In this document: positions 51,949 to 54,059 of the stretch, piece by piece | Position numbering within the stretch: position 1 is the stretch's first letter | How the letters are laid out: every line of letters starts with the position of its first letter | Assembly: GCA_023245335.1 (NCBI GenBank) | Contig: JAHFKK010000001.1 | Coordinates: forward strand, 1,164,053 to 1,218,111 | Direction of reading: 5' to 3' | Length of the DNA: 54,059 nucleotides | DNA from: Candidatus Gottesmanbacteria bacterium | Lineage (GTDB): Bacteria > Patescibacteriota > Microgenomatia > UBA10105 > UBA927 | The notes under the pieces: generated by a model | The model's input: only the letters and a program-made list of their open reading frames with translations | What the model was told of the DNA's origin: nothing | Database searches by the model: none | Made by a program: the position numbers and the translations under genes

Positions 51949-54059
51949 ATGGTTGGTGTAATGTGGGAGAATGTACTGAATTACATGAGTAAACTTATCG
52001 AGTCGTTCGATGAGTATCTTACTGTCCAACATGCAGCTAAACAAACCAGAAAGAACTACAAAAGCGACCTTAACGCTTTTTTCTCCTGGCTGACGCTATC
52101 ACAGGAAACACCGATCTCATCCGTTCATCTCGGCTCCCCCACTGAAGTGCTTAAAGTCGTGAACACCGAGTCAATCGAAAACTACAAATATTCGCTCGTA
52201 TTAACCAAGACACCCGTCGCGACAATAAACCGTCGCTTATCAGCTATACGTGCATTTTGCAGATTTACTGTACTGAACGGTTGGAAACAGGATGATCCCG
52301 CAAATACTGTCGCGAATATTCCACAATCTGCAGCAGCCTCCAAAAATGTAAATCCCAAATCCGAAATGAGGCCTGAATTACCGGGCGTACGTCTTTTACC
52401 GTCTGTTCACGCGCTTCCTCCGGCGATCGACGTCTTACCGGTACCGATCGTCGTGGCCTCGACAGAATCCTTAGTTGCCAGAAATACGTCACAAGTAGCA
52501 GGCCAGACAATTCCGGCACAAGCTGATGCAAATGGTGTGTTGGGTGACACTATCGTCATTCCTCCGTCGGCCGTCCCGGAGGAAGCCGCTGTTGCCGCAT
52601 CGAAAACAAACCCGTTTGTACACACGCTCCTTTCTCCCCTTGGCCTCGGCTTACTCCTTCTGATGCTTCTTTTGGGCGGCGCATTTCTATTTTTTCAAAT
52701 TACCGGATTACAGCAAACAACTGCTCCTCCTCATGCACAGGCTCCTCTCACCCCACAACCAATCATAGGAACCAATAATCCGCCGAAAGGCACTTCTTCA
52801 CAATCAGGAAGTGTTTTAGGCGCCACGGGAGCGACAGGGGCAACAGGAGAAGCCGGTCCGTCAGGCGCCACGGGAGCGACAGGATCAACGGGGGCAATTG
52901 GAGAGGCTGGTTCAACAGGGATAATCGGAAATACCGGTCCAATGGGGGCGACGGGAATAACTGGTCCGCAGGGCACAACGGGACCAACGGGCAATCAGGG
53001 ATCGACTGGAGCAACGGGCGGTGGAGGTAGCCAGGGGCCAACAGGAGTTACAGGAGCCACTGGTTTACGTGGAGACGACGGGCCAACTGGATCTACCGGG
53101 CCGTCAGGATCTATCGGACCTTCAGGCCCCACTGGTAACTTAGGGGATTCCGGTCCGACAGGCGCAAGCGGAGCAACGGGAATAGCTGGTACATCAGGCC
53201 CGACCGGGAGTACGGGTGCAACAGGGTCGACAGGAGCTACGGGAAATAATGGACCGACGGGAGCAACCGGGCAAGGCGGTCCGACAGGATCAACAGGAGC
53301 CACGGGAGCAACGGGGGCTACTGGTGGTGCCGGACCCACAGGAAGTACGGGTGCAACGGGAAACAACGGCCCGACGGGAAGCACGGGTGCAACAGGTGCC
53401 ACAGGAGATAACGGCCCCACGGGAAGCACGGGTGCTACGGGTGCAACCGGAGGAGCAGGGCCGACCGGAGCAACGGGTGCCACAGGAAATAACGGCCCCA
53501 CGGGAAGCACGGGTGCTACGGGTGCAACCGGAGGTACCGGAACAGACGGACCCACCGGATCAACTGGAGACGGCGGACCAACGGGAGCAACAGGAGTTAC
53601 AGGAAACAATGGCCCGACCGGCAGTACGGGGGCAACGGGGGCGACCGGAGCAACGGGAAATAACGGCCCGACCGGAGCAACGGGGGCAACGGGGGCGACC
53701 GGAGCAACGGGAAATAACGGCCCGACCGGAGCAACGGGTCAAGGAGGGCCAACCGGAACAACAGGTGCTACAGGAGCAACGGGTGCTACGGGTGGTGCCG
53801 GGCCAACCGGAACAACAGGTGCTACAGGAAACAACGGACCAACTGGGGCAACAGGTGAAACAGGAGCAACAGGAACGGCTGGACCGACAGGATCTACTGG
53901 ACAAGGCGGCCCGACAGGATCTACCGGCGCAACCGGAAATAACGGCCCCACGGGAAGTACTGGAGCCACCGGCGCAACCGGAGATAACGGCCCCACGGGA
54001 AGTACTGGAGCCACCGGCGCAACCGGAGATAACGGCCCCACGGGAAGTACTGGAGCCAC
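51949..54059 (+). CDS. Partial giant protein: integrase N-terminal SAM-like domain + TM + collagen-like Gly-X-Thr stalk (runs off the window; absent from the ORF track)
   Basis: Frame open for 703 codons from ATG 51949 (alternative ATG 51985); [12 protein letters not shown]...[12 protein letters not shown]; TM 52639-52701; Gly at every third codon from 52819 to the end. Confidence 0.92.
53629..53736 (+). repeat. Exact 54-bp tandem duplication in the collagen region
   Basis: 53629-53682 is identical to 53683-53736. Confidence 0.9.
53926..54059 (+). repeat. 45-bp tandem repeat x3 in the collagen region
   Basis: GGCGCAACCGGARATAACGGCCCCACGGGAAGTACTGGAGCCACC; one mismatch; last copy cut by the window edge. 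Confidence 0.9.

Follow-up and report, generated by a model that had tools for sequence, protein, structure and literature searches.

A giant collagen-stalked membrane protein with a recombinase-type core-binding domain, encoded beside leuS in a Gottesmanbacteria-like genome

The analysed DNA is a stretch of 54,059 nucleotides (the window) from contig JAHFKK010000001.1 of a Candidatus Gottesmanbacteria bacterium. Its 3' end is occupied by an open reading frame (ORF) for a fibre protein, in which a core-binding (CB) domain of the tyrosine recombinase type is joined, through a linker and a single transmembrane (TM) helix, to a long collagen stalk. The features of this gene are the following.

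51949..54059, + strand: fibre protein ORF, 5' part only (703 codons; homologues start at the same ATG)
51949..52323, + strand: predicted cytoplasmic integrase core-binding (SAM-like) fold domain, residues 1-125 (Pfam, NCBIfam, profile search, AlphaFold2 (AF2), Foldseek)
52324..52638, + strand: Pro-rich, probably disordered cytoplasmic linker, residues 126-230 (composition, conserved motifs)
52639..52695, + strand: single TM helix, residues 231-249, followed by a conserved QITGL; signal anchor (hydropathy, conservation)
52696..52818, + strand: predicted extracellular juxtamembrane spacer, residues 250-290, ending in ...SGSVL (conserved in homologues)
52819..54059, + strand: Thr-rich collagen triple-helix repeat region, running past the window end (Pfam, triplet count)

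Translation revealed that the ORF is still open at the window end; the closest in-frame stop codon on its 5' side has its last nucleotide at 51831, and all homologues share the start at ATG 51949. A preliminary description, made from the letters of the window, had reported here an untracked ORF without a stop that combines a recombinase domain, a TM helix and a collagen stalk. The reading frame stands, with 703 codons from ATG 51949 to the last full codon, and the architecture is sustained by Pfam, hydropathy and the triplet count, in the order CB-fold domain (residues 1-125), Pro-rich linker, one TM segment and at least 137 collagen triplets. In a Gottesmanbacteria-like cell (Microgenomates, Patescibacteria), the whole product is a giant protein that crosses the membrane once, and the window encodes at most its third next to the membrane.

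The assembly was checked with Logan contigs from two independent groundwater metagenome runs (X1 and X2), which cover 50500-52962 (X1) and 50659-53437 (X2) with 0 differences. Thus, the junctions between the leuS spacer, the SAM-like domain, the linker, the TM helix and the collagen are real and are not an assembly artefact; the misassembly that the preliminary description had allowed for is not seen at the domain junctions, which contigs of both runs span. Past about 53.2 kb the contigs break up, with alternative joints in the repeats, so that neither the exact count nor the order is certain for the last ~95 triplets.

The N-terminal part of the protein is recognised by the Pfam model PF02899 (Phage_int_SAM_1) at residues 17-108 (nucleotides 51997-52272), with an E-value of 1.8e-7 and 31.7 bits against a cut-off of 22.3; the match improves to 1e-8 when the N-terminal 234 residues are scanned alone. 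The NCBIfam XerC and XerD models align to it at positions 2-99 of about 295, scoring 43 and 39 bits against cut-offs above 329, and a profile of 31 N-domains matches the N-domain of XerD in the PDB (1a0p; E 2.3e-4). AF2, run on a 67-sequence alignment, confidently predicted residues 1-135 as a helical bundle, with a predicted local distance difference test (pLDDT) of 88.3 and a predicted template modelling score (pTM) of 0.82. In a Foldseek comparison of this model with the PDB, each of the 24 top-ranking entries is a tyrosine-recombinase CB domain (from lambda Int, XerA, XerD, Cre, IntI or Tn1549 Int), with probabilities of 0.97-1.0 and query TM-scores (TMq) of 0.46-0.61. These searches and the structure prediction were among the checks proposed in the preliminary description, and the N-terminus models as the integrase SAM/CB fold, as that description had expected. 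It had also noted that no recombinase catalytic domain precedes the TM helix, and the Pfam scan agrees: PF00589 (Phage_integrase, with the R-H-R triad and the tyrosine nucleophile) has no match in the 703-residue ORF, and linker, TM helix and collagen come directly after residue 125. The window protein is not a tyrosine recombinase, since the catalytic domain is absent.

Several properties of the domain bear on its possible function. Its isoelectric point is 8.7 in the window protein and 8.7-9.9 in 28 of 31 homologues. Across the 31 N-domain sequences, 12 columns are invariant, part of this invariance following from the two peptide patterns that were used for finding the loci; family-invariant motifs are encoded at 52039-52068 (10 residues) and 52213-52257 (15 residues). 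The invariant residues of helix B are T33, K35, N36, Y37 and D40 (T-x-K-N-Y), while the start of helix D carries T92-I-N-R-R-L-S98 and R101 (T-I-N-R-R-L-S-x-x-R). In Cre and lambda Int, helices B and D lie in the major groove and contact DNA. The fold, the basic isoelectric point and the invariant N-R-R at the start of helix D suggest a domain that is compatible with DNA binding, which they do not prove. No second copy of the N-domain is present in the window. A profile-search match to a 'RaiA' chain of P. gingivalis was considered as a lead towards ribosome binding and was dropped, being uninformative on ribosome binding by SAM-like domains; the chain is that of an integrase-like protein carrying an HPF part at its C-terminus, and no more than 34 of its residues are included in the ribosome model (PMC12123416).

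The linker has a Pro content of 12.6% over residues 126-228 and is variable among the homologues, except for two motifs, [HR]-[LM]-L-P-x-V-H-x-L-P and D/E-T-[FI]-[IV]-[IV]-P, which are found in the window as LLPSVHALP (52393-52419) and DTIVIPP (52546-52566). Fused homologues have both motifs, and at the split loci described below they are found in the giant proteins, within the N-terminal tails. The TM segment has a mean Kyte-Doolittle value of 2.55 and is the only such hydrophobic segment in the ORF; residues 231-249 correspond to 52639-52695, in agreement with the single helix placed near 52639-701 by the preliminary description. The segment is kept in all fused and split relatives, and the motif that follows it, Q-I-[ST]-G-[LI], is conserved.

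The stalk is matched by the Pfam model PF01391 (Collagen) with an E-value of 2.7e-52. Residues 291-701 form 137 uninterrupted G-X-Y triplets, dominated by GAT (44), GPT (26) and GST (18), with Thr at 97 of the 137 Y positions; the earlier estimate of at least 137 triplets of this kind is exactly the number counted in the window. At the DNA level the region shows repeat periods of 27, 45, 54 and 81 nucleotides. If triple-helical, at 0.286 nm per residue, the 137 triplets correspond to a stalk of at least about 118 nm; relatives with 434 (L020) and 593 triplets (L005) would reach about 370 and about 510 nm. The locus probably encodes the longest single-protein surface appendage of these bacteria. 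By analogy with BclA of Bacillus, the collagen may carry O-glycans; a glycosyltransferase gene lies elsewhere in the window, at 19377-20657. In public scaffolds of metagenome-assembled genomes (MAGs), the collagen repeats of L003, L005, L008 and L009 are interrupted by stretches of N, after which the sequence is out of frame, and most database copies of the fibre genes stop at a contig end and bear the label 'site-specific integrase, partial'. Truncation and mislabelling are a systematic assembly and annotation artefact for this family.

An initial protein search returned seven relatives, all from Patescibacteria and all ending at contig ends inside or before the collagen. A scan of one genome per species (GTDB) with two peptide patterns revealed 37 related loci, mostly in MAGs of Gottesmanbacteria, Woesebacteria, Blackburnbacteria and other Microgenomates. 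In 31 of the 37, leuS lies divergently upstream, and comEA and/or comEC adjoin 33; this shared leuS-comEA-comEC neighbourhood, with LeuS identity to the window down to about 38%, indicates that the loci are orthologous. The fused SAM-linker-TM-collagen ORF is present at 14 loci (N-domain identity 37-73%), most of them truncated by contig ends or scaffold gaps; the five complete fused relatives measure 1,936 (L002), 1,399 (L010), 1,582 (L011), 2,334 (L016) and 1,875 residues (L018). Such conservation in many species identifies, from sequence, the SAM-TM-collagen design as a functional architecture. The survey, which the preliminary description had proposed, found the fused design at 14 loci and a split one at 12, across the Microgenomates class.

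At these 12 split loci (L014, L019-L025, L027, L028, L030 and L031) a small gene of about 170-215 codons precedes a giant TM-collagen gene, and its stop lies 2-10 nucleotides before the ATG of the giant gene or overlaps it. In the small protein, a complete SAM-like domain is followed by helices one and two of another, and the last two helices of this second domain open the giant protein (e.g. SPATIARKKASVGKFQQW), followed by the linker motifs, the TM helix, up to more than 519 collagen triplets and the shared C-terminal module. The complete giant genes encode 1,646-3,232 residues. The split falls between helices B and C, across translationally coupled genes, at about 10,450-10,650 in each split locus. 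With the domain HMM (hidden Markov model), the end of the small protein matches positions ~13-54 and the start of the giant one ~64-118, and the two sequences, when concatenated, match as a single domain in 8 of 11 loci; in L028, L030 and L031 the score of the concatenation is near or above the sum of the halves (L031: 36.9 and 34.6 bits, 75.2 together). This pattern looks like natural fold complementation between two polypeptides, in which the small protein would dock on the cytoplasmic tail of the giant one by completing the split SAM-like fold. Most other genera build this unit from two proteins, whereas in the clade of the window a gene fusion has taken the place of the non-covalent joint and the second domain has been lost. 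The coexistence of fused and split forms (a Rosetta-stone relation) argues for joint action of the SAM-like protein and the fibre, as a single unit. Programmed recoding, by read-through or frameshift, was also considered at the split loci, five of which have the two genes in the same frame; it was rejected in favour of an operon, because all three stop codons are used, the offset between the frames is not constant and every giant gene comes with an ATG of its own.

The SAM-like domain has a wider distribution. A HMMER scan of 1.84 billion representative proteins gave 450 clusters with E-values up to 1e-30 and 1,511 with E-values up to 1e-10; the ~170-residue form predominates among them, and the scan also included giant proteins (P0157, P0178, P0198, P0257, P0276, P0278) with one to three SAM-like domains, a TM helix and collagen or non-collagen ectodomains. 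In a wider superfamily (loci L026, L032, L033 and L037; proteins P0198, P0257, P0258, P0276 and P0278), one to three SAM-like domains and a TM helix are followed by giant non-collagen ectodomains, which begin with the conserved juxtamembrane motif LSFQGRLTD..G.P.TT...F.LY......LW....C.I.PD.DGIF and many of which end in the ...FNWWIIN module. Source databases label the family 'site-specific integrase' or 'XerD', which is functionally a wrong name.

Orthologues at the same locus reveal what follows the collagen, namely a non-collagen distal module of 760-1,830 residues. It opens with a conserved post-collagen junction of ~55 residues (GQIGANGE..LFT..NLIYPYPVVNRSLALGS), includes a conserved central module (...DPPYTIDGKNYATY...VSYRLTAPRFD...) and closes with a ~300-residue terminal module that ends in ...FNWWIIN. 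The complete window gene would carry such a module, starting at about GQIGANGE..NLIYPYPVVNRS and ending at about FNWWIIN; no copy of it exists elsewhere in the window. Sequence searches with the distal modules were nearly blank. Pfam found Laminin_G_3 in L016, and K1-lyase_C in L018 at 25.8 bits, just under the 27-bit cut-off; precomputed assignments give PF24146 (K1-lyase_C) on 13 of 32 homologues of the C-terminal end and PF13884 (Peptidase_S74) on one, P0137, which shares the S-D-V-R-L-K-T-N motif of this domain with P0157. The PDB searched by sequence returned nothing usable, with chance ferredoxin matches only, and neither PHROGs nor 50,697 phage records searched by tblastn gave a match. 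Fold comparison alone was informative. In the AF2 model of the C-terminal end of one relative, the last ~70 residues are confident (pLDDT 90-96), and Foldseek matched this end, over ~75-90 residues and with probabilities of 0.96-1.0, to 9k4a, 7eea, 6ct8, 6cl6 and 4ru4, which are C-terminal domains of Klebsiella phage depolymerase S2-4, the tailspike of cyanophage Pam1, R-type pyocin fibres and the LKA1 tailspike. The BFVD library of viral structures contributed another 58 at E<=1e-3, among which tail fibres and K1-lyase_C proteins predominate. Judged from these models, the family has a distal end constructed in the manner of a receptor-binding fibre of phages.

A probable arrangement of the protein across the membrane follows from these data. 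A single TM helix places the N-domain and the collagen on opposite sides of the membrane. Cells of the candidate phyla radiation (CPR) are about 0.2-0.3 um across; the ectodomains of the relatives, at ~370-510 nm, are longer than the cell and have a tail-fibre-like tip, so that the collagen probably lies outside and the CB-fold domain inside.

Upstream of the fibre gene lie a predicted promoter and a long spacer, beyond which the neighbouring genes are on the opposite strand:

51909..51948, + strand: promoter block CCTC-TTGACA (-35 at 51913-51918), 16 nucleotides, TATTAA (-10 at 51935-51940), 8 nucleotides, ATG (conservation)
48705..51281, - strand: leuS (neighbour)
47981..48631, - strand: comEA (neighbour)
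47088..47978, - strand: comEC, Competence domain (neighbour)
46049..46966, - strand: comEC, metallo-beta-lactamase part (neighbour)

The promoter block (CCTCTTGACAGCCTTATTAGTAAT...TATTAA-8 nucleotides-ATG) is unique in the window, where 0 are expected by chance, and its core CTTGACANNNTTATTA is found once per ~20-kb locus, at a fixed distance and at the fibre gene only, in 22 of the 37 loci. Neither TTGAC nor the spacer block TATTA varies among 20 aligned loci; conservation, which extends over at least 20 species, covers the promoter spacer (TTATTA) besides the -35 and -10 elements, and the block may be an operator. Since no Shine-Dalgarno sequence precedes ATG 51949 and the predicted -10 element lies 8 nucleotides from it, the fibre mRNA is probably leaderless. 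The leuS-fibre intergenic region (51282-51908) is rich in AT, with a GC fraction of 0.29-0.34, and has the unusual length of 580-870 nucleotides in all loci. Its conserved islands are ACTATAAG...TATAGG near 51640-51672, AAAYGATWACCGCA near 51702-51717, TTGATATA and GAAGCTAA near 51797-51815, and ATGCGGKAAT..GTGAAA near 51822-51842, which may be regulatory DNA sites or a leuS leader. A single-sequence fold of the + strand of this spacer gave z = -3.2; no Rfam match and no consensus structure pointing to a structured RNA were found in it. No inverted repeats suggesting an invertible promoter and no significant excess of promoters or terminators were detected.

Some further observations concern the rest of the window. 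comEC is present as two adjacent ORFs (46049-47978, - strand), and the same two-part tblastn pattern is seen in nearly all related loci. Four large ORFs have no Pfam domain at E<=1e-5, namely 5432-11314 (+ strand, 1,960 residues), 20654-23584 (+ strand, 976 residues), 2431-4479 (+ strand, 682 residues) and 24312-25922 (- strand, 536 residues); they may encode further orphan envelope or surface proteins. The ORF at 11841-13673 (+ strand) is a fusion of an N-terminal GNAT acetyltransferase and a C-terminal hexokinase (Hexokinase_2, E 3.4e-10).

Overall, these data are best explained by a type-II, membrane-anchored recognition fibre with a nucleic-acid-binding cytoplasmic CB domain, a reading to which a probability of about 50% can be given as a whole. 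Its parts differ in strength. The chains are very probably trimeric and oriented N-in/C-out, with a rigid collagen stalk of at least 118 nm. It is likely, with somewhat less assurance, that this stalk presents a tail-fibre-like tip recognising a host cell or a surface glycan; the Thr-rich stalk would hold the recognition module 0.1-0.5 um away from the cell. More tentatively, the cytoplasmic domain might bind nucleic acid, with DNA as the likeliest ligand, on the inner side of the membrane. In that case the fibre would be comparable to a membrane-tethered DNA-binding protein of the ToxR type, and its base could be tied to the nucleoid or to a specific operator, for instance the conserved promoter of the fibre gene itself. 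The chromosome anchoring and the signalling across the membrane that the preliminary description had suggested are speculation.

A number of points weigh against this reading. For the N-domain, the E-values of the Foldseek matches are modest (0.07-0.5), as is expected at ~110 residues, and a single-sequence search of the PDB missed XerD, returning chance matches only. Recombinase CB domains that lack the catalytic domain bind DNA only weakly, and the docking of split domains uses the CB fold as a protein-protein interface, which fits a role other than DNA binding equally well. The tip of the window protein lies off the window and is deduced from relatives with 37-61% N-domain identity; the AF2 model of one relative's C-terminal end is, as a whole, only moderate (pLDDT 71, pTM 0.34). 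The cytoplasmic N-domain and extracellular collagen of the preliminary description are favoured by the lack of an N-terminal signal peptide in the window protein, by the length of the ectodomain and by the tailspike-like ends, but they gain little from the positive-inside rule: Lys and Arg residues flanking the TM helix number 1 on the N side and 0 on the C side in the window protein, and 56 and 41, respectively, over 24 family proteins. DNA binding, trimerisation, glycosylation and surface exposure are predictions.

The objection from the split domains leads directly to a different function for the same fold. The CB-fold domain could be a protein-protein module or helical scaffold that does not bind DNA and that self-associates or recruits a partner, such as a secretion or quality-control factor or a cytoskeletal or division protein, helping to export, position or bundle the fibre. 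The second SAM-like domain, split and apparently reassembled across two polypeptides in 12 loci, the one to three tandem SAM-like copies of the relatives and the persistence of LLPxVHxLP and DTxIIPP in a variable linker, as docking sites would persist, all agree with such a scaffold; the first complete domain is however basic in 28 of 31 homologues, its invariant T33, K35, N36, N94, R95, R96 and R101 sit on the helices by which recombinases contact DNA, and no partner has been identified, which together make this explanation, the main rival of the preferred reading, rather unlikely. The opposite extreme is an extension of the preferred reading to a coupler across the envelope, of a type so far undescribed, where a filament of 100-500 nm in contact with a host cell or a surface would be wired through the TM helix to recombinase-derived DNA-binding domains, three per trimer and more in the relatives with tandem copies, holding the chromosome or the fibre's own operator at its base. 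The DNA could then respond directly to an outside contact, whether by a change in gene regulation, by placement of the nucleoid or by transfer of DNA taken up through the adjacent ComEA/ComEC, and the docking of split domains in sister genera would be a releasable version of the same switch; this fuller scheme is considered unlikely. Release might also be proteolytic, if tension or engagement of the tip led to intramembrane or juxtamembrane cleavage that frees the CB domain for DNA, or, in the two-gene form, to liberation of the soluble small protein, as in the analogous RsgI anti-sigma, Notch and SREBP systems. The combination of a sensor-like fibre outside, one TM helix and a DNA-binding-type fold inside, the small protein that is docked only non-covalently and could be released, and the occurrence of PF13884 in the ectodomain of P0137 and of S-D-V-R-L-K-T-N in P0137 and P0157 speak for such a mechanism. 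It is nevertheless improbable, as no site-2 protease, cleavage motif or regulated target was identified and the fused form demonstrates that permanent tethering is compatible with function.

Two other explanations look to the genomic surroundings. Since comEA and comEC lie 3.3-5.9 kb away in the window, and one or both adjoin 33 of the 37 loci down to a LeuS identity of ~38%, the fibre could be a competence-linked device, capturing a host cell and passing incoming DNA to the cytoplasmic domain together with ComEA/ComEC. The proximity noted by the preliminary description is thus real and conserved, but it amounts to synteny only: the com genes are on the opposite strand, beyond leuS and an intergenic region of 580-870 nucleotides, hence not co-transcribed with the fibre gene, gene order within one class of small genomes may be simple inheritance, and no part of the fibre resembles a competence protein, so that this link is very improbable. 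Even less credible is an artefact or remnant, namely a chimera produced by misassembly, an integrase pseudogene in decay that was joined by accident to a collagen gene, or the tail-fibre cassette of a prophage. Such an origin might be supposed from an ORF that is cut by the window end, from repeats that assemble ambiguously, from the 'site-specific integrase' label of the relatives and from their phage-tail-fibre-like distal module. It is largely refuted by the two independent assemblies that span the junctions with 0 differences, by an architecture that is kept at a single chromosomal place beside leuS, fused in 14 loci and split in 12, by an N-domain that folds confidently and has invariant residues, and by the absence of any tblastn match in the phage records and of any PHROG match for the distal module.

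Microgenomates and other Patescibacteria are ultra-small and mostly uncultured, and are thought to live attached to other cells. In the fibre family a recombinase DNA-binding fold has been reused without the enzyme, being membrane-tethered, tandemly repeated or split between proteins. DNA binding by the domain would make the family a novel link between surface fibre and chromosome; a domain that does not bind DNA would still provide a clear case of natural fold complementation as a protein joint. In either case, the mislabelling as 'site-specific integrase/XerD' inflates the counts of mobile-element integrases in CPR genomes. A literature search, in which not all journals were covered, found no account of the SAM-TM-collagen architecture, nor any of collagen proteins from Patescibacteria or of CB domains that are split or tethered to a membrane; the combination of a collagen surface fibre with a membrane-tethered DNA-binding fold is unprecedented in the literature searched.

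The single elements of the fibre nevertheless have known counterparts. Like BclA of Bacillus, Scl1/Scl2 of Streptococcus and the fibres of Pasteuria, it has a long uninterrupted Gly-X-Y tract without hydroxyproline, for which a filament with a globular distal domain is expected, and its Thr-rich GPT/GAT/GST triplets recall the glycosylated GXT repeats of BclA; the stalks, with up to 593 triplets, are far longer than those of the BclA/Scl type. The mode of anchoring is also different. BclA has an N-terminal exosporium-targeting segment and Scl proteins a C-terminal LPXTG motif, while the window protein has an internal TM helix preceded by ~230 residues that are predicted to be cytoplasmic; its relatives end in ...FNWWIIN, without LPXTG or a hydrophobic tail, and carry a tail-fibre-like tip, with no Pfam or PDB match to the C1q/TNF-like tip of BclA or to the V-domain of Scl. 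A type II arrangement, with cytoplasmic N-terminus, TM helix and extracellular collagen, is found in the animal proteins collagen XIII, XVII, XXIII and XXV, MARCO and SR-A. This is an analogy only, as there is no sequence relation, the animal tails are short and without a nucleic-acid-binding fold, and these proteins use a juxtamembrane coiled coil for trimer nucleation, none being evident in the window protein.

Collagen stalks with a trimeric fibre tip are a known phage design, and the distal module of the relatives resembles phage tail fibres, tailspikes and R-type pyocin fibres by fold, with PF24146 in some and PF13884 in one. Unlike phage fibres, the family is chromosomal, at a fixed locus, membrane-anchored and provided with a predicted cytoplasmic domain, without a baseplate-attachment domain and with no phage or PHROG sequence match. 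The N-domain is homologous in sequence and fold to those of XerC/XerD, lambda Int and Cre, and keeps the signature residues of helices B and D; it differs from them in the absence of the R-H-R-Y catalytic domain, in its membrane tether and in its tandem or split occurrence in the relatives. Finally, ToxR, TcpP and CadC have an OmpR-type winged helix and a small periplasmic sensor, in place of which the fibre protein has a CB fold, with putative DNA binding, and a fibre of 100-500 nm; the layout is however the same, although the proteins are not homologous: an N-terminal domain of DNA-binding type, a linker, a single TM helix and an outside domain, and these regulators are proposed as the working analogy.

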